The notes beneath the pieces were generated by a model. The model worked only from the letters and a program-made list of their open reading frames with translations, did not search any database and was not told where the DNA came from. 64,000 nucleotides of DNA from Candidatus Thorarchaeota archaeon (GTDB taxonomy: Archaea > Asgardarchaeota > Thorarchaeia > Thorarchaeales > Thorarchaeaceae). Of this stretch, positions 1,291 to 12,177 are shown in pieces. The stretch covers positions 42,052 to 106,051 of the forward strand of contig RDOC01000005.1 in NCBI GenBank assembly GCA_011364985.1. The letters run 5' to 3'. Both the position numbers and the translations under genes were made by a program. The first letter of the stretch is position 1. Each line of letters starts with the position of its first letter.

Positions 1291-1629
1291 TGCTCTCAGG
1301 TTTACATTGATTCCTTAGCAGAAAAGGGTTTGTGAAAAGGGCAACGAAATGCCGTAGTGAGTCTTACCGCATCATTGAATAGTCGTGTCGATTGTATCTG
1401 ACATTCAGCCACTCTTTTGAAGATCGAAATGATCCAAGTCATGGCCAGCGCTGCACTGCTGTCTGCTTTACTTACGTTCCTATACCAGCAAGAGAGCATT
1501 TGAATACAACGAGTTCTTTATGAGAATCCTTGTTGGTGCATATGCCGCACCAGCTTTCATTGCAAGCTACTTTAGAAGAGCAGAAGATAACAGGAAGGAG
1601 ATATCATCTGTAGAGTCGGCAGTCTAGTT

Positions 1630-1661
1630 CAAGAGAAACAAAGAGGGGAAAGAACCCCTCT
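1630..1661 (-). terminator. Hairpin plus U-tract downstream of the MFS gene
   Basis: AGAGGGG (1642-1648) and CCCCTCT (1655-1661) form an inverted repeat, followed on the minus strand by TTGTTTCTCTT, 8 nt past the MFS stop. Confidence 0.6.
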
Positions 1662-1668
1662 CGTATCT

Positions 1669-3024
1669 CTAAGAGGCCCCTATCGCTTGGTCTCCAACCT
1701 CGCCGGTTCTAATCGCCAGAGTAAGTATCAGGGCCACAACAAAGAAGGCGATGGAAACAGGATACATCAGAGTTATGCTTGTTATATCAAAAATCACGCC
1801 GGTCGCAAAGGGTCCAAAGATTGCAGCACTCATGCTTGCAAAGTAGTACAAACCGGTTCCTGCACCGAGCCGTTTTTGTCCAAGCAACTGCCAAACTATG
1901 ACTATGCTGTTCACATTCACCATTGCCCAACCAACTCCAGCGACTACAAGAATACCCAGAATAGTGTAATAGTCGCTCACAACCCAAAGAGCCACTAGAG
2001 CAGCAAGCATTATGACTAGGCCACCAAGAATTGTTTTCTTTCTTCCAATTCTGCCTGCAATGAATCCTGCTGGAACTGCAAATATAACAAAGGCCAACGC
2101 AATGCCATTGAGAAGGAAGGAAGCATCTGCTGTTGCGAAACCTAGGACTTCTTTCCCATACTTTGTGAACCAAGTTTCTATGGCGTTATAGCCAAGGAAC
2201 CAGAAGAAGATAGCACCAAGGATAGCTATGGCAGATTTATCATCTGAGAAGGACACCTGCCGCATAGCTTCGAGTATTCCAATTTCCTCTTGCTCTTCTT
2301 CTTCTTCTCGTTTAGGAGAATCTGTTTCCTTTATGACTAGGAAAAGCACAATTACTGCAATAATCATGATTAGAGAAGTGGTTACAAAGGCCAGTACTGG
2401 TCCGATTTGCCAAATTTGAACATGAAATATACTGGCCAAGTTCGTGTCTCGAATCTTGTATATTTGGGATGCAACAGCATAAGCATAGATGGCTCCGATA
2501 CCGCCCATGAGATTGATAACCCCATTGGCTTTTGACCGGTGCTCTGAAGGCACTAGGTCGGGCATGAGAGCTACTACTGGCGCACGATAGAAGGCCATAG
2601 CCACATTGAATACGGTAATCATTCCAAACATAACCCAGAACATAGAAGCTGCCCAACCGTACGCAATTAGCGAGAAGTAAATTGCAGCAATTGGTGTTCC
2701 AATCAGAATATAGGGCATTCTTCTACCCCATCTCGTGCGTGTCTTGTCTGAACGGGCACCTATGTATGGTTGGAGAAACAAGGCAAGAATATTATCCAAC
2801 ACCATTATCGCACCGATAATGGTGTTCTCAAAATCGCCTGAGATGAAAGCCGGGAGGAAGTCTGCAGGGAGGTAGCTGTTGTAAACGCTCCAGCTTACAC
2901 CTGTAGTGAAAAAGCCAAGGCCAATAGCAAGAACATAGAGCCACCGCATCTTTGGTGCCTCATTTGCATTGGTTTCACCGACTTCATCGTCTGCAACGGA
3001 TTCATTTTCATCCTCGTATGTCAA
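1669..3024 (-). CDS. MFS transporter (SLC45/GPH-like sugar transporter)
   Basis: About 12 TM segments; QPYIGARSDKTRTRWGRRMPYI motif A variant. Confidence 0.9.
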   Translation of the reverse strand: MTYEDENESVADDEVGETNANEAPKMRWLYVLAIGLGFFTTGVSWSVYNSYLPADFLPAFISGDFENTIIGAIMVLDNILALFLQPYIGARSDKTRTRWGRRMPYILIGTPIAAIYFSLIAYGWAASMFWVMFGMITVFNVAMAFYRAPVVALMPDLVPSEHRSKANGVINLMGGIGAIYAYAVASQIYKIRDTNLASIFHVQIWQIGPVLAFVTTSLIMIIAVIVLFLVIKETDSPKREEEEEQEEIGILEAMRQVSFSDDKSAIAILGAIFFWFLGYNAIETWFTKYGKEVLGFATADASFLLNGIALAFVIFAVPAGFIAGRIGRKKTILGGLVIMLAALVALWVVSDYYTILGILVVAGVGWAMVNVNSIVIVWQLLGQKRLGAGTGLYYFASMSAAIFGPFATGVIFDITSITLMYPVSIAFFVVALILTLAIRTGEVGDQAIGAS

Positions 3025-3210: not shown

Positions 3211-4062
3211 ATGACACAGATGAGAATTCGAAATATGAATACAAACGACCTTGGCTTTGCTATAAGCCTAACAGAACAGGAGAAATGGGGTAGTATTAGA
3301 GAGGATTTTCAGGAACTCCTGCTTTTCGACCCAAATGGATCCTTTATTGCAGAAATGAATGGCGAACCAATCGGAATGGTATGCGCAATTTCCTATGGGT
3401 CCTTTGGATTCATTGGAAACCTGATAGTCCGATCAGAATATCGAAAGAGCGGCTATGGAACAACTCTGATGAGTCATGCCATCGCGTATCTCAAAGGGAA
3501 AGGAACAGATACTGTAATGCTTGATGCAGTACAGAAAGCAGTACCTTTATACAAGAAGCTAGGTTTCAAAGAGATGTGCAACTCACTTAGGTACGAGGGA
3601 CGCGTTGAGCCAGAGACTTCCAGCAATTCTCGGGATATGGAAGACAAGGATATGATGCACATTCTAGGGATTGACAGGAAGCACTTCGGAGCCAATAGAT
3701 TTCTTTTCCTTGGGAGCAGTTTGTCCAGGGACCCAGATTTGGCCCGTGTTATTGAAGTGGGAGGCAGAATAGTTGGTTACATAATGGGAAGTAAGCGGCA
3801 TGGGTTTGTTAGGCTGGCACCATGGATAATCTCGGAGTGCCCTGAGCTTGCCAATGAGATGCTACGCGATTTTGCAGTACGTGTAGAAGGAAAGCAGATC
3901 AAGCTAGGAGTTCTCGAATCTAATACTCATGCTGTAAAAGTCATGAAGGCCCACGCGTTCTATCAGAAGAGCTATTCTGTTCGAATGGTCCTTGGCGCTT
4001 TGCCGAGAGATATGCAACCGTCAAACGCAGTATATGCAATAGGGTCCGCTATGCGTGGATGA
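3211..4062 (+). CDS. GNAT N-acetyltransferase (two-domain, YitH-like)
   Basis: IGNLIVRSEYRKSGYGTTLM acetyl-CoA-binding motif; AVPLYKKLGF. Confidence 0.9.
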   Translation: MTQMRIRNMNTNDLGFAISLTEQEKWGSIREDFQELLLFDPNGSFIAEMNGEPIGMVCAISYGSFGFIGNLIVRSEYRKSGYGTTLMSHAIAYLKGKGTDTVMLDAVQKAVPLYKKLGFKEMCNSLRYEGRVEPETSSNSRDMEDKDMMHILGIDRKHFGANRFLFLGSSLSRDPDLARVIEVGGRIVGYIMGSKRHGFVRLAPWIISECPELANEMLRDFAVRVEGKQIKLGVLESNTHAVKVMKAHAFYQKSYSVRMVLGALPRDMQPSNAVYAIGSAMRG

Positions 4063-5233
4063 CCATTTTCTTTCGTCGTGACCTCATTCTCTCAATCCTA
4101 GCCCCTAAGTTAACCTCACTAATACGATTCGCCACAAATGGTGACGCAGCTATTAGGGCAACAGCAAGGAGCCAGACTACGGAGATATCGATTGTTGCAT
4201 GGCTATAGGTTCCCTGAACAAACATCTCAATCATAGTGCGATATGCATTGGAGAAGGGCACATACTCGTTGAGAACTGTGAAGCCCATTCCGGTCAAAGA
4301 TAGTGGTGCGATCCCACCTCCAGTGATCCAGTAAAAGAGAGCAACCAGTGCGCAAAGTGGAACAACATACACCGAGTTTCTTGCCATCGACCCTAATATT
4401 GTTCCCACGCCTGCAGTAAAGATAGCCAATGGTAGCGTCATCGCAAGGAACGTGAGTATGTCACCTCTAGGTAGAACACCATATAATCCCCATCCCAGAA
4501 ACAACACCGCTGGAATGGAAATGTAGCTTAGAACTGCTCCACTCAACATTTTTCCAGCATAGATCGCATATGGAGACCGATTGGAGAGTGTGAGTTCCTC
4601 GATTGTGCTCTGTTCATACTCTTGTGCTGTCGCTGATGCTGCAAGGAACATTCCTCCAAAAGATATGCCGTATACCATAACTGTCCATGCCATATACGCC
4701 AACCTTGGAGGAGTATACTCATTCAACAGTTCTACATTGAAATCGACTTTCGCATCCTCAGTGAGATAGGTCTGATAGAAGATGTCAAGCTTCCTGATGA
4801 CAGGCATACGTAGGTTCTTTGTCATGTCCTCGTGGGCATTGTTAACCATAATGTGGATACTAGTTGATTGGTTATTTTGAAGAGCTTCTTCAAATCCTTC
4901 AGGGATCGTAATCACAAGCAGAATCTCACCAGTTTCAAATAGGCGGTTCGCAGTATCGCTATCCAGCTCAACTAGCCTCAAGCTGGGAGGAATTGGATCA
5001 TGCGTTCCCAGAATCTCAATCAATCCATTTGTGTAGAATTCGGGATTCTGTTCCTCAACCACAAGAGCAGTATCAACACCCGGTCCGGCATATACTCCGC
5101 CCATTAGCAGCACGAAAGCGGAGTAGTATAGTAGAGGAAAGAGTATGACAAATCCCAGCCGCTCCTTGTTTCTGAGCCAAGTCTTGATCTCTTTCACAAA
5201 TGATGCACGAAGTACTCTGGACCGATCACTCAT
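4049..5233 (-). CDS. ABC-2 type transporter permease
   Basis: N-terminal TM, extracellular domain (ITIPEGF), five C-terminal TMs; lies in an operon with an ATPase. Confidence 0.9.
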   Translation of the reverse strand: MSDRSRVLRASFVKEIKTWLRNKERLGFVILFPLLYYSAFVLLMGGVYAGPGVDTALVVEEQNPEFYTNGLIEILGTHDPIPPSLRLVELDSDTANRLFETGEILLVITIPEGFEEALQNNQSTSIHIMVNNAHEDMTKNLRMPVIRKLDIFYQTYLTEDAKVDFNVELLNEYTPPRLAYMAWTVMVYGISFGGMFLAASATAQEYEQSTIEELTLSNRSPYAIYAGKMLSGAVLSYISIPAVLFLGWGLYGVLPRGDILTFLAMTLPLAIFTAGVGTILGSMARNSVYVVPLCALVALFYWITGGGIAPLSLTGMGFTVLNEYVPFSNAYRTMIEMFVQGTYSHATIDISVVWLLAVALIAASPFVANRISEVNLGARIERMRSRRKKMVIHA

Positions 5234-6363
5234 GAACGCTCAACCTCCTGTGCCATTAGCTTCGTGGAAAGAAGTGTGAACACTATCCACATTGTCAGTA
5301 GAGCAACCATGCCAAATAGAAGCCCAGACATAGTATCATAGAAGAACACACGAGCCCACATGCTTATAGAATGAGTCGTTGGAAGCATCATCACCAGAGC
5401 TCTGAGCTCTCTTGGCATCAAACCAATTGGGGCAAGGCCACCTCCAGCAAGAAAACAAACAACGCTGAATAGAACCGAGAAAAGGATTGCAGTTTCCCTC
5501 TTTTTAGACCGAAGACCAATAATATCGCCTATAGGTACAAGGACCAAGATAGAGAGCAAGAGGATTAGTCCAAGTATTACCGGATTGCCAGCAGGAAGTG
5601 TTCCGGTGCCAAGCAGGATAACTGGCACAGTAATCAAGAGCACAAAAAGAGAGCGGGGAATTGCAGCAATCGTGTGGGCAACCACTATGGCAATTCTACT
5701 CGTTGGCGAGTTCAATGTATCATAAACTGCCTTTGTTTCAAAATCAGATGCGGTAGCAAGGGCTTGCCCAGTGACAGAGCAGACAATGACAGATAGAACT
5801 ACTGCTACTGCATACATATAGGCGAGGTTTGACGGAGTTACGTCTAGATTCAGAGTTTCATTGAGAGCAACCCGTGCATCAGATTGATCGTATTCTGGAT
5901 AGATTGCACCCTGATTATAGAGAAGAACTGCAGCCTCAATTCTATGCACATAATTCTTGACAACATCATCATTCAGATTGACTATGTAGATGACAACTAC
6001 CGCTTTAATGCCCGCAGTTATGTTTACTCCAAACCCTTCAGGGATTAGAACATATGCAATAAGTTCGCCGCTTTGAAATAAGTCCATTGCAGTCGCAGAA
6101 TCATACCGGCTCATTTTGAACCAAGTATGATTCGTAGTAGAAACCATATTCTCTAGGATGAGGGCCATATCTTCTGCTTGTGTTGATGAGTCTTCGACAA
6201 CAAGTCCACAGACAAAGGATTCACCTCCTCCAACTTGAGCCCACATGATTGCATAGACCAATGCGAGCACAAATGGAACTATCAGGCTGGGGGCAACGAA
6301 TCTTGGGTCTCTTTTTGCTTGCTTCAGGTCCTTCCTTACTATGGCGGCAATCTCCCTTAGCAA
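5230..6363 (-). CDS. ABC-2 type transporter permease
   Basis: AIVRKDLKQAKRDPR start, YVLIPEGF, LPTTH motif; paralog of the adjacent permease. Confidence 0.9.
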   Translation of the reverse strand: MLREIAAIVRKDLKQAKRDPRFVAPSLIVPFVLALVYAIMWAQVGGGESFVCGLVVEDSSTQAEDMALILENMVSTTNHTWFKMSRYDSATAMDLFQSGELIAYVLIPEGFGVNITAGIKAVVVIYIVNLNDDVVKNYVHRIEAAVLLYNQGAIYPEYDQSDARVALNETLNLDVTPSNLAYMYAVAVVLSVIVCSVTGQALATASDFETKAVYDTLNSPTSRIAIVVAHTIAAIPRSLFVLLITVPVILLGTGTLPAGNPVILGLILLLSILVLVPIGDIIGLRSKKRETAILFSVLFSVVCFLAGGGLAPIGLMPRELRALVMMLPTTHSISMWARVFFYDTMSGLLFGMVALLTMWIVFTLLSTKLMAQEVERS

Positions 6364-6365
6364 CT

Positions 6366-7328
6366 CTAATCCCTCAACTTTGATCCTGTTATCGTCAGAA
6401 ACACATCACCCAGAGAGGGCTCTCTCAGGGAGGCCTGCTTAACCCTCAGGTTGCGCTTTGTGAGTCGTTCGATTACTATTGGAAGATCAGAATGACCTGA
6501 CTGACTCCGAATCCATGCCGTTCGGGGGCCTCCATCAAGAGGCGCACTTACTTTCTCAACCTCCAGTTTTAGCTCCCCAGCGAGCCACTCGGCACCAAGA
6601 GCAGAGTCCATGTTCTCGACTAGGACCTCAATGAGATACTCACCCACATATTCGCGCTTCAGGTCGTTTGGTGTGCCTTCAGCCACCAGTTTCCCATTAT
6701 CAATTATTATTACTCGATCGGCTAATGCTTCGCTCTCATCCATGTAATTTGTACAAAAAAGAACGGTACGCCCTTCATCCCGCATCTTCCGGACCTGATT
6801 CCAAATCAGATTTCGGCTTTGAACATCGACACCAAGAGACATCTCGTCAAGAATGACAAGCTTGGAGTCATGTAAAATCGACCGGACTAGAGCAAGACGA
6901 CGCTTCATACCTCCGGAATAGGTCTTCACCAAGTCATCTTTACGATTGGTAAGTCCAGCGATCTCAAGCATTGATGCAACACGTGAATCAACTTCGGTTT
7001 CAGGCACTCCATATAGGTGTGCATGGTATACCAGAGATTCTTGTGCGGTGAGGTCTTGATATAATGCGGTTTCCTGTGGCATGAAGCCAATCAACTGACG
7101 AATCTTGGAGAGGTTCTTTGATACTTCGTAACTATGAATCTTGACACTTCCAGAACTGGGCTTGAGAATTCCTGTAATCAGTTTGACAGTTGTTGATTTT
7201 CCTGCACCATTGGGACCAAGGAGGCCAACTATTTCACCCTGCTCAACTGAGAATGAGAGGTCATCCAAGGCTTTTCTTTGCTCACCATAGATATGGGTAA
7301 GGTTTGAAATTTCTATCATCGAAGGCAA
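6366..7328 (-). CDS. ABC transporter ATP-binding protein (DrrA-like)
   Basis: Walker A GPNGAGKST, signature YSGGMKRR, Walker B LVILDE, C-terminal EPSLGDVF. Confidence 0.95.
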   Translation of the reverse strand: MPSMIEISNLTHIYGEQRKALDDLSFSVEQGEIVGLLGPNGAGKSTTVKLITGILKPSSGSVKIHSYEVSKNLSKIRQLIGFMPQETALYQDLTAQESLVYHAHLYGVPETEVDSRVASMLEIAGLTNRKDDLVKTYSGGMKRRLALVRSILHDSKLVILDEMSLGVDVQSRNLIWNQVRKMRDEGRTVLFCTNYMDESEALADRVIIIDNGKLVAEGTPNDLKREYVGEYLIEVLVENMDSALGAEWLAGELKLEVEKVSAPLDGGPRTAWIRSQSGHSDLPIVIERLTKRNLRVKQASLREPSLGDVFLTITGSKLRD

Positions 7329-7437: not shown

Positions 7438-7743
7438 TTGACACTGGAATATATTTTGCAGCCACGAGTTTTGGTTGTTTTGAAAGAATTAAACTGGGGA
7501 GACCGATTTGAGAGTGATCTCCAACAGAAGATTTCTGAGATATCAGGTGGACCTGAGAGTCTGGCCGATATTAGGAATGAGCTATTGAAGAACGGACTGA
7601 TTTTACAATTGAAGGGAGGACAAGGCAGCCCGTATCTGTCACTGACCTATAAGGGCCAGCTCATAGTCGATCGGCTCCTTGAAACAGAAGAGATGCTCGC
7701 TTCAGAGGATGTTGACCAGTCTGGAGCGTTACCCCAAGAGTGA
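7438..7743 (+). CDS. Small winged-helix protein
   Basis: ELLKNGLI...YLSLTYKG wing pattern; preceded by a purine-rich SD-like stretch. Confidence 0.6.
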   Translation: MTLEYILQPRVLVVLKELNWGDRFESDLQQKISEISGGPESLADIRNELLKNGLILQLKGGQGSPYLSLTYKGQLIVDRLLETEEMLASEDVDQSGALPQE

Positions 7744-7782
7744 CAAGGTCTTGAAAAGGATGCAAAGCTATCTCTAGTTGGT

Positions 7783-8622
7783 ATGGCAATGTCAGATGAT
7801 GAAATCGTTTCGCAAATGATGAGTCTTGGATTGCACCTAAACGAAGCAAAAGCATACAAGGCTCTTGTTACCATCGGACAGAGTACAGCTCGAGATGTTG
7901 CTTCCAGTTCTGGGATTCCTAGGAGCAAGGTGTATGACGTACTGTACTCACTTGAGAACAAGGGACTTGTTCGAAGAATCCTTGGAAGCGAACCAACAGA
8001 ATTTAGACCATATCCTCCGAAAGAGGCGATTCCCCTTCTTCTTGAGAAAATCCAGCAGTCAGGTAAGCTTGTACAGAGAACGTTGGAGAGCTTGGAGAAC
8101 GAGAGAGGCATTGAGGGTAGAGAGTTAGTGTACACAATAGAGGGGAATGATCAGATTAGAATTGAAGTTCGAAGCTTAATCAACAATGCAAAGAAACAGG
8201 TGTTTATTTCGACTCTGAACCCTGCCATACTCAGTCTTGCAAGGCCAGCCTTAGCAAATGCAAAGAAGCAGGGTATAGAAATCAGTCTTGTCACATCACG
8301 CAACTTCATCGAAGAATGGCCCGAGTTCAAGCACTATGTAAACATGACAGATCTGGCAGACGTAAGCCCGCCTGGGATTATGGAGCAGATGAGTGCAGTT
8401 CTACAGGACGATTCAGTTATCGATGCAGGATGGAATCCAACACAGATGGGAATTGTTATTGCGGATAACACAGAGAGTATCGCATTCTTTGGCAGCCATA
8501 GAAACCAATCCAAGCCATGGGCATTGACCGTTCGCGTTCCGATGATTGTTATCTTGCAAAAACATGTGATATCAGCCGTCCTCGCCCAGATAGTACGATT
8601 TCTTGAAGGAAGCGCCAAATGA
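7783..8622 (+). CDS. TrmB-family transcriptional regulator
   Basis: LGLHLNEAKAYKAL...SGIPRSKVYDVLYSLENKGLV is a typical TrmB HTH. Confidence 0.92.
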   Translation: MAMSDDEIVSQMMSLGLHLNEAKAYKALVTIGQSTARDVASSSGIPRSKVYDVLYSLENKGLVRRILGSEPTEFRPYPPKEAIPLLLEKIQQSGKLVQRTLESLENERGIEGRELVYTIEGNDQIRIEVRSLINNAKKQVFISTLNPAILSLARPALANAKKQGIEISLVTSRNFIEEWPEFKHYVNMTDLADVSPPGIMEQMSAVLQDDSVIDAGWNPTQMGIVIADNTESIAFFGSHRNQSKPWALTVRVPMIVILQKHVISAVLAQIVRFLEGSAK

Positions 8623-8721
8623 GCAGTTATAGGATAACTTATCCTAGTACCTGCTGAGAGTAAGTTCATATTTGAAAGAGGCCATTCTTTCTTGCTGCTC
8701 CTGATTGGAGGAAAAAGAGGA

Positions 8722-9534
8722 TTGAAGAAACCGCTTCTCAAGGTTCTTAGGTGTCCAAAATGCCAGAGGAGCCTATTCATATCTGAGAATAATGCGAATC
8801 TAAATGAAATTCACGAAACGACCTTAGCGTGCGAGAAGGGTCACATTTGGAAGGTAGAGGATGGAATTCCTTCTCTTGTGTTTCCGTCCGTTAGTTCCAA
8901 GGATGCAAAATGGATTGCCCAATATGAAGAAATGGCCGAGAGCTACGATGATCTTGTCAAGCAGTACGATGATTGGCTTGGCATAGATATGATGAAAGAA
9001 CGAGAGAGAATTGTTCGTTTCGTTCCGATAGAGGCACCTGTAAAGATACTGGATGTAAGCATTGGAACTGCAGCCACCTTTATTGCTTTGTACAATGCAT
9101 TCCAAGGAAAACAGATGGAACGTTTCAATCTTCATGGGCTCGATCTCTCTCTTGGCATGCTCAAGGTGGCGAAACAGAAGATAGAGAAAAGAAGCTTGGA
9201 CATCAGTCTCGTTCACGGGAACGTATTCAATATTCCATACAAGAACAACTCGTTCAACATCGTCTATCATAGTGGGGGTATCAATACATTCTCAGATATT
9301 GGCCTAGCATTGAACGAGATGCTCAGAGTTGTACGGTCCGGTGGAATTGTTGTAGTTGTTGATGAGGGGTTGTCTCCAGACATGCGTGAAAGCGAGAAAG
9401 GGAAGGAGATTATAAGGACCAATAGTTTATTTGCAGCAAGGCCACCCATCGCATACTTGCCTGAGAAGGTAAAGGATGTTGAAATGAACTATATCATGAA
9501 TGGGACGTTCTATGAGGTTGTATTCAGAAAATAG
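8722..9534 (+). CDS. Class I SAM methyltransferase (UbiE-like) with N-terminal Trm112-like Zn domain
   Basis: N-terminal LRCPKC...LACEKGH.W.VEDGIP; ILDVSIGTA motif I, GLDLSLGML, ALNEMLRVVRSGG. Start placed at the TTG at 8722 after an SD. Confidence 0.85.
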   Translation: MKKPLLKVLRCPKCQRSLFISENNANLNEIHETTLACEKGHIWKVEDGIPSLVFPSVSSKDAKWIAQYEEMAESYDDLVKQYDDWLGIDMMKERERIVRFVPIEAPVKILDVSIGTAATFIALYNAFQGKQMERFNLHGLDLSLGMLKVAKQKIEKRSLDISLVHGNVFNIPYKNNSFNIVYHSGGINTFSDIGLALNEMLRVVRSGGIVVVVDEGLSPDMRESEKGKEIIRTNSLFAARPPIAYLPEKVKDVEMNYIMNGTFYEVVFRK

Positions 9535-9564
9535 ATGAGTCTGTTAATAGAAAATAGTCTGTGC

Positions 9565-9675
9565 TCATGTGGCTTCCCACAAGAGCACTTGTTCGCATGT
9601 GGCACAACGATGATCGGCTTTCTCGTTGCGACTGGGATGATGAGTAGTTCGAATGAATTCCTTTTGGTCATTCAT
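9565..9675 (-). CDS. 36-aa peptide (micro-ORF D, CxxC)
   Basis: MNDQKEFIRTTHHPSRNEKADHRCATCEQVLLWEAT*; GAGGT SD 10 nt upstream. Confidence 0.35.
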   Translation of the reverse strand: MNDQKEFIRTTHHPSRNEKADHRCATCEQVLLWEAT

Positions 9676-9681
9676 AGCGGA

Positions 9682-9774
9682 CTATACCTCTTTGTAAAGA
9701 TATGAATGTGCAAGCGCCTTGGTCGAAACATGCTGCTTGACACGTCGATCATATTCTTTCTTAACTGGAAACAT
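9682..9774 (-). CDS. 30-aa peptide (micro-ORF C)
   Basis: MFPVKKEYDRRVKQHVSTKALAHSYLYKEV*; GGAGGT SD 7 nt upstream; similar to ORFs A and B. Confidence 0.55.
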   Translation of the reverse strand: MFPVKKEYDRRVKQHVSTKALAHSYLYKEV

Positions 9775-9779
9775 CGAGC

Positions 9780-9887
9780 TTACCTCCTGTATGCAAGCGC
9801 GTACCCAATAGCATCGGTCGAAACAACCTTTGCCATTTTCGAATTCCTTGTTCCACTTCTGAATAGGGCATTCTTCTCAATTGCCAT
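9780..9887 (-). CDS. 35-aa peptide (micro-ORF B)
   Basis: MAIEKNALFRSGTRNSKMAKVVSTDAIGYALAYRR*; GAGGT SD 8 nt upstream. Confidence 0.55.
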   Translation of the reverse strand: MAIEKNALFRSGTRNSKMAKVVSTDAIGYALAYRR

Positions 9888-9889
9888 TT

Positions 9890-9997
9890 TTACTTACCTC
9901 GTGATGCGTATGAGTAGTAGAGTGCCTCATTCCAGTGATAGTTCGAAGTTGATGCATATTGGAGTTCTTCACTTCGATTACTTGTTTCTTGGACCAA
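9890..9997 (-). CDS. 35-aa peptide (micro-ORF A, TTG start)
   Basis: MVQETSNRSEELQYASTSNYHWNEALYYSYASRGK*; GGTGA SD 6 nt upstream; shares the C-terminal motif with B and C. Confidence 0.5.
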   Translation of the reverse strand: MVQETSNRSEELQYASTSNYHWNEALYYSYASRGK

Positions 9998-10054
9998 TCT
10001 TGCTCACCAATCCTTGTGTGAACCAGTTGAGTTCGCATGTTTCCATACAAAGTC

Positions 10055-10155
10055 TACATATATAAAGGTTTGTAAACCAAACCATTTGTAACTAAAACCA
10101 TTTTAATACGTACTTTTTTTGTCTTACATGGTTCCTACGATAAACCTTTTAAAAT
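10055..10155. promoter_or_regulatory. AT-rich divergent promoter region with TATA box and candidate operator repeats
   Basis: Minus-strand TTTATATA (10066-10059); palindrome GGTTT-GT-AAACC (10067-10078); three AAACC(A/T)TTT direct repeats (~10079, ~10096, ~10142). Confidence 0.55.
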
Positions 10156-10158
10156 GGA

Positions 10159-10941
10159 TTGCGCATAAAATACAAAGAACAAAGAACGAATTGGGATGAT
10201 AGATTGACGAAATATGAAGTGACTGACGCCCTTGAGGGAATTGAACTCACGGAAGAGGGCAAACAGGAAATGCGCGACATCGTGTTCATTCACGATAAAG
10301 AACGTGGGGAAATCATAGACGACCAAGTAAGACATTTCATCATCCAAATCCTGAAGCGCGGAATTGACGATATGCTGACGACTGAAACCAAGGACCCAAG
10401 TACAGGGGGAACTATTAGGATTCAGAGAGAAATAAAGCGATATGCAATGTCGGTTGTGGAGATTGTCAGAATGGCAAAGAGGTATAACGACATTGACAAT
10501 GTGACCAAAAATCAAGTTTATCACCACCTGCCAAAACTCATTGAAGCGGGCTTTGTAGTCAAATATGGAACCGTTGTAACTGGAAAAAGAACAACGGATT
10601 ACTACCGAAGAACGGCAAAGGGCTTTGTTCTTGCTACGAGCCAATCGACTATGAATGAAGCGTTAATGAAGAGGAAAGCAGAAAGTCATGTCGAGAAGTT
10701 CTCAATCTTTGATATTACTCTTTCAGAGGCCCAGAAGAAGGAACTAGTGGGCCTGCTGTTTGAAGCAGCCAAGATAGAGAAGAAAGGCGTATCGGAAATC
10801 GCCAAGCTCGTGAAGGGGGACGTCGCCGATAAGGAGATACTATCGATGTACGAGGATTTGGTTATGCTATATGCCCTTGGTGATGAGAACTGGTTACAAA
10901 TTCATAGAAGGATACGGGAAATTCTCCTTCCAAACAAATAA
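10159..10941 (+). CDS. Winged-helix (ArsR-like) transcriptional regulator
   Basis: NQVYHHLPKLIEAGFV...TTDYYRRTAK helix-wing motif. Confidence 0.8.
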   Translation: MRIKYKEQRTNWDDRLTKYEVTDALEGIELTEEGKQEMRDIVFIHDKERGEIIDDQVRHFIIQILKRGIDDMLTTETKDPSTGGTIRIQREIKRYAMSVVEIVRMAKRYNDIDNVTKNQVYHHLPKLIEAGFVVKYGTVVTGKRTTDYYRRTAKGFVLATSQSTMNEALMKRKAESHVEKFSIFDITLSEAQKKELVGLLFEAAKIEKKGVSEIAKLVKGDVADKEILSMYEDLVMLYALGDENWLQIHRRIREILLPNK

Positions 10942-11313: not shown

Positions 11314-11691
11314 CTAAAGCCGCCTCATTAGTTGAATTGCAGTCTTCGCCAAATCAACAATGGTGAGCTCTGGTACGGAGTCAGGAGTGGCCCAAGCAAT
11401 TGCCCAAGTGTCATCTTCTACAAGAGCCATTAGGAGATGACCTTGGTCCTTGTCCGCAGTTGCTATGTACGATTCGTCATCGGCAGCTACCAATCTGTAG
11501 GTCACACCACCTACCGAAATAGAGGAGGCTCCTGACGATGATGCAGTGGCTAAGGATTCTGTGGCATCGACAAGGTTATTCCAGTTTCTGGTAACCCAAA
11601 TGATCTCACCGTTCTTCATAATCGCGAAAGCCTGAATCTTCGGATTATGGGAATACAGAAGTTTCCACTCATTATCGATAGTCATGTCCAT
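11314..11691 (-). CDS. Profilin-like protein (divergent paralog)
   Basis: AFAIMKNGEIIWVTRNW...SISVGGVTY...GHLLMA...WAIAWA; aligns with the adjacent profilin. Confidence 0.75.
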   Translation of the reverse strand: MDMTIDNEWKLLYSHNPKIQAFAIMKNGEIIWVTRNWNNLVDATESLATASSSGASSISVGGVTYRLVAADDESYIATADKDQGHLLMALVEDDTWAIAWATPDSVPELTIVDLAKTAIQLMRRL

Positions 11692-11796: not shown

Positions 11797-12177
11797 TTAG
11801 ATTTTGCCTTTCAGTGATTTTGCAGCACGATCAACATCGACATAGATTCCGTCTGGAGCAGCTTCTGCCGCAGCCCAAGCAACAACGAACTTGTCGCCCT
11901 CGATTTTGGCTAAAACCAAAATGCCGCTTCCTTGAACATTTCTGGCTACGAGACTATCGGGAGTTGTCCGAATTGTGCTGTATTTCACCTGATTCTGCAT
12001 GACACTTGCAGCACCACTGCCAACTGCCTTGCCAAGCTGAGCTGCATCGGCTGTGAGGTCCCAGTTGTTTGACTGCCAAAGGACCTGGCCGGAGGTAGTG
12101 ATTACTCCAAAGGCTTGAACCATGTTTCCGCTGTCATTGTAGGCTTGTGTGTATGCATCCATAACTGGATCTGACAA
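11797..12177 (-). CDS. Asgard profilin
   Basis: AFGVITTSGQVLWQSNNWD...QVKYSTIR...LVARNVQGSGILV fits the Asgard profilin pattern (G.I..Q..NW, KY, N..G.G); 126 aa. Confidence 0.85.
   Translation of the reverse strand: MSDPVMDAYTQAYNDSGNMVQAFGVITTSGQVLWQSNNWDLTADAAQLGKAVGSGAASVMQNQVKYSTIRTTPDSLVARNVQGSGILVLAKIEGDKFVVAWAAAEAAPDGIYVDVDRAAKSLKGKI

Follow-up and report, generated by a model that had tools for sequence, protein, structure and literature searches.

We analyzed a stretch of 64,000 nucleotides (nt) from a Candidatus Thorarchaeota archaeon (assembly GCA_011364985.1, contig RDOC01000005.1, positions 42,052 to 106,051 of the forward strand), hereafter called the window; all coordinates refer to it unless another contig or locus is named. 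The minus strand of a 620-bp gap in this stretch, previously taken as empty, was found to carry four unannotated micro-open reading frames (micro-ORFs), A to D, which encode peptides of 30–36 amino acids (aa). They lie between a divergent gene for a winged helix-turn-helix (wHTH) regulator and a convergent gene for an S-adenosylmethionine (SAM) methyltransferase. Judging from comparative sequence analysis, we firmly regard A–D as a real, lineage-restricted micro-protein operon whose end is dual-coded and which is paired with a dedicated regulator that is conserved alongside it.

The micro-ORF array

Micro-ORF A (9890..9997, minus strand) has a TTG start and encodes 35 aa, and it is followed on the same strand by B (9780..9887, 35 aa), C (9682..9774, 30 aa) and D (9565..9675, 36 aa). 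Successive ORFs are separated by only 2–6 nt, and each has its own Shine-Dalgarno (SD) sequence, also on the minus strand: GGTGA at 10008-10004, 6 nt ahead of the start of A; GAGGT at 9900-9896, 8 nt ahead of B; GGAGGT at 9787-9782, 7 nt ahead of C; and GAGGT at 9690-9686, 10 nt ahead of D. The SDs of B, C and D are located inside the final codons of the preceding ORF, and the terminal codons AGG AGG TAA of B contain the SD of C. In the array, YRR-stop is encoded as AGGAGGTAA and V-stop as GAGGTATAG. Such overlaps of stop, SD and start are kept across the family, with YRR-stop again as AGGAGGTAA and YR-stop as AGGTAG with an ATG 6 nt further on. The four ORFs, their spacing and their individual SDs had been proposed in a first-pass annotation made from the letters alone, and all were confirmed from the ORF list and the sequence; its suggestion that the final residues of a peptide are partly dictated by the SD of the next ORF is supported. 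Start codons vary within the family: B begins with TTG in part of this genus, and C-type ORFs in several genera have CTG, TTG or GTG instead of ATG at the conserved MALAK position (L019 1614-1703, L027/L028/L030, L063 2093-2176).

The array is beyond what chance would produce in this genome, where only 4% of all ATGs (compared with approximately 20% of long ORFs) have an SD-like word ahead of them. When the 1.7-Mb assembly was searched on both strands for runs of at least three SD-bearing ORFs of 26–42 codons, a single one came up, namely A–D itself, with four links. A single read-through polyprotein was rejected: the ORFs of some relatives do lie in one frame, with single stops between them, but here the frames of A and B, and of B and C, differ.

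Alignment confirmed that A, B and C are paralogous, and their origin by tandem duplication is supported; the DNA words GTTTCGACC and GCGCTTGCA, noted in the first-pass annotation, are indeed common to B and C. Across the family, B follows the consensus MAxxKNTxN...AKVxSTxAIGYAYxYRR (with the conserved tail ST.AIGYA.AYRR) and C follows MALAKxxxxK...ISTxAIxHxYxYR (or, written more compactly, MALAK..K..ISTxAIxHxYxYR), so that the two are basic paralogs of the common pattern MALAK...ST.AI..Y.YRR, in which the Ser-Thr and Tyr positions are invariant. A is an extra paralog with the tail ...NEALYYSYASRGK, seen in this genus only. D is unlike the other three: its N-terminal part is free to vary and its tail is fixed as T.EEVL[ML]WEAT, or T.E[EQ]VL[LM]WEAT in the wider form. 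Conservation is centred on the last ~14 codons, and the N-terminal parts evolve fast. The mean net charge is +5.2 for B (+5 in the window), +6.3 for C and −1.1 for D. AlphaFold2 (AF2) predicted B as one helix covering residues 2–32, with a predicted local distance difference test score (pLDDT) of 73. The best 18-residue hydrophobic moment is 0.31–0.36, with z of about 0 to −0.5 relative to shuffled sequences, which indicates no amphipathicity, and no signal peptide is present on any of the tandem micro-ORFs. The core unit, which is also the ancestral one, is shown to consist of B and C, both basic and helix-prone, together with the mildly acidic D, and A is a genus-specific duplicate. A zinc finger in D was also considered and rejected: Cys and His are not conserved, and the CxxC found here is replaced by I-T-R and other residues in relatives.

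Orthologous regions with conserved frames and SDs were readily found. In a congeneric genome (G016) with 70% nucleotide identity, all four frames are kept with lengths of 35, 35, 30 and 37 aa, A starting there with ATG. A six-frame search of 301 genomes of the phylum with an A/B/C profile detected the family in 67 of the 76 genomes of its own family (Thorarchaeota) and gave 1 weak match among the 225 others; the family is thus shown, as far as sequence profiles can tell, to be restricted to Thorarchaeota. The listed matches are all open frames of ~30–70 codons (mostly 31–55) lacking internal stops, and one genome can contain as many as ten of them. Despite heavy sequence turnover, more than 60 genomes keep the frames with their lengths and starts, and the spacing of the SDs. 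Codon-level conservation, one of the checks suggested by the first-pass annotation, points in the same direction: synonymous change exceeds non-synonymous change across orthologs, with ratios of non-synonymous to synonymous difference (pN/pS) of 0.34–0.41 in the C-terminal parts and 0.5–0.8 in the N-terminal parts, and a pairwise rate ratio (dN/dS) of 0.09 for B relative to its ortholog in G016.

Among 1.84 billion representative proteins, there were 16 matches at E <= 0.001, all of 29–49 aa and either unnamed or labelled 'hypothetical'. No database family in Pfam, NCBIfam or the PDB profiles describes the peptides: in Pfam and NCBIfam, searched with two paralogs besides the four peptides, the one match was that of D to the ZNF598 zinc finger (E 0.05), attributable to chance, and the PDB profile search gave only POP7 (E 0.34), also a chance match. 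An ESM Atlas feature search returned IS66-TnpB fragments at 0.82, within the noise range; Rfam had no match over 9000-10700; and full-text literature searches found no paper on such peptides. On the opposite strand, a 119-aa ORF (9706-10065, plus strand) was rejected as a real gene, having no Pfam match and an antisense frame that is broken in relatives (the median longest open stretch being 60 of 108 codons).

Promoter, regulator and 3′ end

Upstream of the array, the first-pass annotation had pointed out a TATA box, TTTATATA, which was confirmed on the minus strand at 10059..10066. It is adjoined by an operator region (10067..10102, minus strand) that contains a perfect palindrome, GGTTTG-GTTTA-CAAACC (10083-10067), abutting the TATA box at the position of the transcription factor B recognition element (BRE), and a weaker upstream copy, AATGGTTTTAGTTACAAA (10102-10085). 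The combined operator and TATA pattern is conserved across genera, together with the pair of regulator and cassette, with 53 sites in 43 of the 81 family genomes versus 1 for a control pattern. Of the 32 operator sites that were inspected, 23 stand ahead of peptide ORFs (L171 having a peptide and then a major facilitator superfamily (MFS) gene), and 8 stand ahead of one orthologous MFS_1 transporter gene. In some genera (L073, L077, L083, L084, L087, L094), a second operator copy, AATAGTTTG-N5-CAAAC, is located between the TATA box and the first SD, which suggests a roadblock besides promoter occlusion. Two other genomes (G004 and G015; L011/L012 1517-1995) have the operator and TATA box followed by a leader of ~480 nt in which no family peptides are recognisable, and then by MFS_1; this leader may represent degenerate micro-ORFs or an RNA element.

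The divergent wHTH regulator (10159..10941, plus strand; 260 aa) is presumed to be a repressor. Its AF2 model (pLDDT 82) is closest in fold to PH1932 (PDB 1uly and 2cwe; Foldseek E 7-8e-9, template modeling (TM) scores 0.49/0.62), well ahead of PadR, and Phr, the Pyrococcus heat-shock regulator, appears lower in the same list. The PH1932-type fold consists of an archaeal ArsR/Phr-type wHTH and a C-terminal helical dimerisation domain, and the model of the regulator has both; in Pfam it matched PadR/HTH_20 below threshold only. Its recognition helix, TKNQVYHHLPKL, is nearly invariant. A B-C(-D) cassette lies divergently upstream of the regulator homolog at 41 of 54 loci, and several of the remaining loci lack upstream sequence or hold distant paralogs. 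The divergent arrangement described in the first-pass annotation therefore stands, and the regulator is a conserved partner of the cassette. One relative with a complete contig (G003, L007) has the regulator at 1631-2440 (plus strand) and a single divergent peptide at 1318-1437 (minus strand), MALAKKHKK...MYRVSFRR, behind the same operator; the convergent neighbor of this locus is a P-type ATPase gene instead of the methyltransferase gene.

At the other end of the array, an RNA hairpin (9561..9588, minus strand) of the form GTGCTC-T-TGTGG / GAAG / CCACA-T-GAGCAC spans the stop of D (TGA, 9567-9565) and the codons ahead of it, and is followed by a T-rich tract (9556-9546, minus strand). It comprises the final nine codons of D, the stop and the next 6–9 bases. 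In 39 distinct sequences, 83% of cells are paired, versus 27–51% when the partner is slid, and double-sided changes number 18, compared with 6.4 in shuffles, none of 500 shuffles reaching 18. Two of the covariations, GTG/CAC to GTA/TAC and CTC/GAG to CTT/AAG, are synonymous in D; a third, TGG/CC to TTG/CA, changes Trp to Leu. Synonymous divergence is lowered in the hairpin segment (pS 0.35 vs 0.65). At two loci (L056, L088), the hairpin is rebuilt differently and the peptide tail of D is nonetheless retained. From these alignments, the constraint on the 3′ end of D is real in both respects, as a peptide tail and as an RNA hairpin, which explains why the hairpin region gives nucleotide matches of 87–93% across genera; outside it, there is no nucleotide-level conservation beyond the coding pattern. 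We infer that the hairpin and T-tract form a terminator-like or stabilising 3′ end. With a BRE/TATA promoter, four micro-ORFs and this hairpin and T-tract end, the locus reads as a compact, self-contained transcription unit.

Transporter links, further cassettes and neighboring genes

There are two independent genetic links between the peptides and MFS transporters, one being the operator shared with MFS_1 and the other a sister cassette that is co-operonic with MFS_3. The latter cassette, of the C15 type described below, lies directly upstream of an MFS_3 gene, with B-C located 14–50 nt upstream in 12 of 30 MFS loci examined. Family peptides occur within ~530 nt upstream of MFS_3 in 22 of these 30 loci, across four genera. 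The other 8 gave no peptide match, 5 of them having at least 1,000 nt of upstream sequence.

The same genome contains three further cassettes, at C20:41652-41986 (B-C-D; L044 5653-6100), C15:203990-204199 (B-C; L045 5900-6200) and C4:6009-6218 (B-C, with a D-like ORF after them; L046 5920-6370). They have a common promoter of ~90 nt (91–93% identical) that contains the palindrome GTCACA-N4-TGTGAC and GCTATATATA. It differs from the operator of the window and is a second, distinct switch. The B tails of the three cassettes are identical to each other (...ALYQAYLYRR). Other genomes also homogenise their dispersed copies, from which the regulator-linked one remains different. Across genera, the neighborhood is conserved separately for each cassette class, at fixed positions of the core genome. 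A comparison of 43 cassettes, made to find an enzyme common to their surroundings, yielded class-specific synteny only, and the two convergent downstream genes proved to be unrelated.

Several smaller features were observed around these copies. The D-like ORF at C4 (L046 6225-6368, plus strand) ends with ...TLGEMLALEAIKASLSFL and not with ...WEAT-stop, and is a divergent D with a C-terminal extension. An 85-aa ORF which belongs to no Pfam family (L044 6091-6348, plus strand) lies ~100 nt away from the promoter of the C20 cassette, in divergent orientation, and is a possible partner gene of that cassette class. A stretch at L046 ~6400-6560 (minus strand) resembles the 5′ part of a tRNA (GCCGAGATAGCCAAGC...GGTTCGAG...); ARAGORN and Rfam gave no match there, and it may be an intron-rich or split tRNA, or nothing.

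In the window, the array converges on the SAM methyltransferase gene (8692..9534, plus strand; class I, UbiE/Methyltransf_11 type), as had been noticed in the first-pass annotation, and the two converge 30 nt apart in most genera. However, the order TrmB - methyltransferase - cassette - regulator - AsnC-type domain - profilin is conserved as a whole block, and adjacency of the methyltransferase alone therefore carries little weight; the functional link that the annotation had offered as speculation comes down to synteny. An ABC-2 type exporter operon (4049-7328, minus strand) lies on the far side, comprising a DrrA-like ATPase (6366-7328) and two ABC2_membrane_3 permeases (5230-6363 and 4049-5233), and is divergent from a small ORF and a TrmB-family regulator gene (7438-8622). 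The exporter proposed earlier is thus real, but no tie to the peptides was found, and 2.2 kb with three genes on the other strand separate it from the cassette. Beyond the regulator are two tandem profilin-like genes (11314-11691 and 11797-12177, both on the minus strand), one of which has a weak Pfam Profilin match (E 0.0075). A profilin homolog adjoins the regulator in 45 of 54 related loci, and the peptide cassette therefore belongs to a block that includes cytoskeletal genes.

Proposed function and comparison with known systems

Taken as a whole, the observations are best explained by a repressor-gated, translationally coupled micro-protein operon with a dual-coded end and an intracellular, transporter-linked role, an explanation in which we have moderate confidence. 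The PH1932/Phr-like regulator would bind GGTTTG-N5-CAAACC beside the TATA box, where, by blocking TBP/TFB, it would hold the operon silent as long as no signal brings about its release. Since the SDs lie in the last codons of the preceding ORFs and are kept there in the family, translation is probably coupled, and coupling would yield the peptides in near-equal amounts, possibly acting together. The 3′ hairpin of D would end or stabilise the mRNA. Their most likely function, which we put forward only tentatively, is that of intracellular, inducible small basic helices of a transporter-linked response, neither membrane-lytic nor enzymatically matured. In this response, they would attach to a larger molecule, which could be the transporter itself or a polyanion (for example, RNA, DNA or the ribosome). 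Intracellular partner-binding peptides are favored by the two MFS links, a strongly positive charge, the missing amphipathicity and the fixed core-genome positions. A complex prediction for B, D and C with family alignments scored 0.02; it had no controls and weighs neither way on binding.

Several points count against this explanation. Repression at the BRE/TATA site is probable, and it is deduced from the position of the operator and the fold of the regulator only. The operator in the window is the sole occurrence in this genome, whose MFS_1 ortholog lacks it. An MFS_3 partner, sought with one query, turned up in 7 of 16 genera, although nearly all genera have the peptides. Finally, no relatives of the peptides could be detected in Pfam, NCBIfam or PDB.

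The main rival is that these are exported leaderless peptides, acting as signals or as antagonists of the bacteriocin or phenol-soluble modulin (PSM) kind, which are pumped by the co-regulated or co-operonic MFS protein under the control of the repressor. Three or four tandem, related cationic peptides of 30–36 aa, each with its own ribosome-binding site (RBS) and no signal peptide, would suit such a role. So would the sister cassette's co-operonic MFS_3 gene (a 'transmembrane secretion effector'), the operator common to the MFS_1 gene and the peptides, and a multicopy family with fast-evolving N-terminal parts. However, the hydrophobic moment does not exceed that of shuffled sequences, unlike in PSMs and leaderless bacteriocins, and this argues against membrane activity of either type. 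The cassettes also occupy fixed syntenic positions of the core genome across genera and not patchy accessory islands, there is no evident immunity gene, 9 of the 16 genera gave no MFS_3 partner, and MFS pumps rarely carry peptides of 30 residues. Export of this kind is therefore unlikely in our estimation. A broader version, a lineage-wide peptide system of leaderless cationic micro-proteins in repressor-gated, MFS-handled cassettes, serving as exported signals or weapons or as pump modulators, would be more far-reaching still, and we rate it as quite improbable. A more speculative variant is that C-type peptides could dock on the 20S proteasome: in most genera they end in x-Tyr-Arg-COOH, which is similar to the HbYX tail of the proteasome ATPase PAN, but the C peptide of the window (...YLYKEV) does not fit. 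A toxin-antitoxin pair was considered as well and is unlikely, as several cassettes lack D.

A different possibility is that the peptides act in cis as leader or arrest peptides, the conserved C-terminal segment in the ribosome exit tunnel tuning a downstream gene such as an MFS pump. Leader peptides upstream of efflux genes are a known theme in bacteria, conservation here falls in the last ~14 codons, the peptides are about as long as the exit tunnel, and B-C of the sister class lie 14–50 nt upstream of an MFS gene. Only in that class, however, is there such a downstream gene. The cassette of the window and those of classes II and III end in a hairpin and T-tract and converge on the next gene, which leaves nothing downstream to regulate. 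In addition, D is kept as a peptide even where the hairpin changes (L056), and three or four coupled ORFs exceed what an attenuator needs. A cis-acting role is accordingly very unlikely.

Even less probable are precursors of ribosomally synthesized and post-translationally modified peptides (RiPPs), matured by the neighboring methyltransferase or by distant enzymes, as had been floated in the first-pass annotation. This idea would be in keeping with several short paralogous precursors, in which Ser-Thr and Tyr positions do not vary, and with the SAM methyltransferase gene that converges on them in most genera. Nevertheless, the methyltransferase accompanies the class I cassette only, within the block of conserved gene order, and the other cassette classes examined have unrelated neighbors and no modifying enzyme in common. 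The architecture is also inverted with respect to most RiPPs, as the C-terminus is the conserved part and not a leader in the variable N-terminal part, and no RiPP family was matched in Pfam or NCBIfam. That the gap holds no peptides, only a structured non-coding RNA or chance ORFs in a spacer, is scarcely credible: different genera do share the nucleotide sequence of the 3′ hairpin, but conservation is not of RNA structure only, as frames, lengths, starts and SD spacing are kept in the more than 60 genomes mentioned above, synonymous change prevails, Rfam gave no match and, the hairpin aside, only the coding pattern is conserved.

Asgard archaea are the closest known relatives of eukaryotes, and micro-proteins of less than ~40 residues are mostly missed when their genomes are annotated. 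In the present family, nearly every genome holds several copies, one of them in a conserved block beside profilin genes, and the family genetically links tiny proteins to MFS transporters. The locus offers a compact, testable circuit composed of a presumed repressor, its operator, coupled micro-ORFs and a dual-coded terminator, the last being a clean case of one sequence under peptide-tail and RNA-hairpin constraint together. If the peptides are signals, pump modulators or nucleic-acid binders, they would add a lineage-specific layer to Asgard cell biology; a lineage-wide peptide system, if true, would have no described precedent in Asgard archaea as a means of peptide-based communication or transport control.

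Among known systems, the psm-alpha locus of Staphylococcus aureus consists of four tandem PSM genes of ~21 aa, each with its own RBS. The array described here resembles it in having tandem paralogous micro-ORFs with individual RBSs and no signal peptides, in its presumed direct control by a regulator that binds DNA, and in being linked to a transporter. However, PSMs are strongly amphipathic, membrane-active helices exported by an ATP-binding cassette (ABC) system (Pmt), whereas the peptides in the window are hydrophilic and strongly cationic and have no excess moment; furthermore, the cassette has an acidic third member and an MFS rather than an ABC link, and there is no sequence similarity. 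Leaderless multi-peptide bacteriocin operons, such as those of aureocin A70, garvicin KS and enterocin L50, similarly encode three or four related cationic peptides of 30–44 aa side by side and without a leader. Those operons are accessory and strain specific, include genes for ABC export and immunity, and encode hydrophobic peptides rich in Trp and Gly. The present cassettes, in contrast, are core and syntenic across an archaeal family; no immunity candidate was found, and Pfam, NCBIfam and PDB profile searches gave no similarity to a known bacteriocin family.

Small modulators of transporters are known as well, for example, in the pairs MntS-MntP, SgrT-PtsG and AcrZ-AcrB. Like MntS, SgrT and AcrZ, the peptides would be tiny proteins co-regulated or co-transcribed with a transporter; the three modulators are single genes, often membrane-embedded, and not multicopy three-peptide cassettes. 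With regard to the regulator, PH1932 and Phr-type proteins (PDB 1uly, 2cwe, 2p4w) have the same fold, and, like Phr, the regulator of the window faces a palindrome that overlaps its presumed target promoter. It differs from PH1932 by an extra N-terminal segment of ~45 residues and a long beta-hairpin insertion in the wHTH, with an identity of only 19%, and its putative targets are micropeptides and an MFS pump instead of chaperones.

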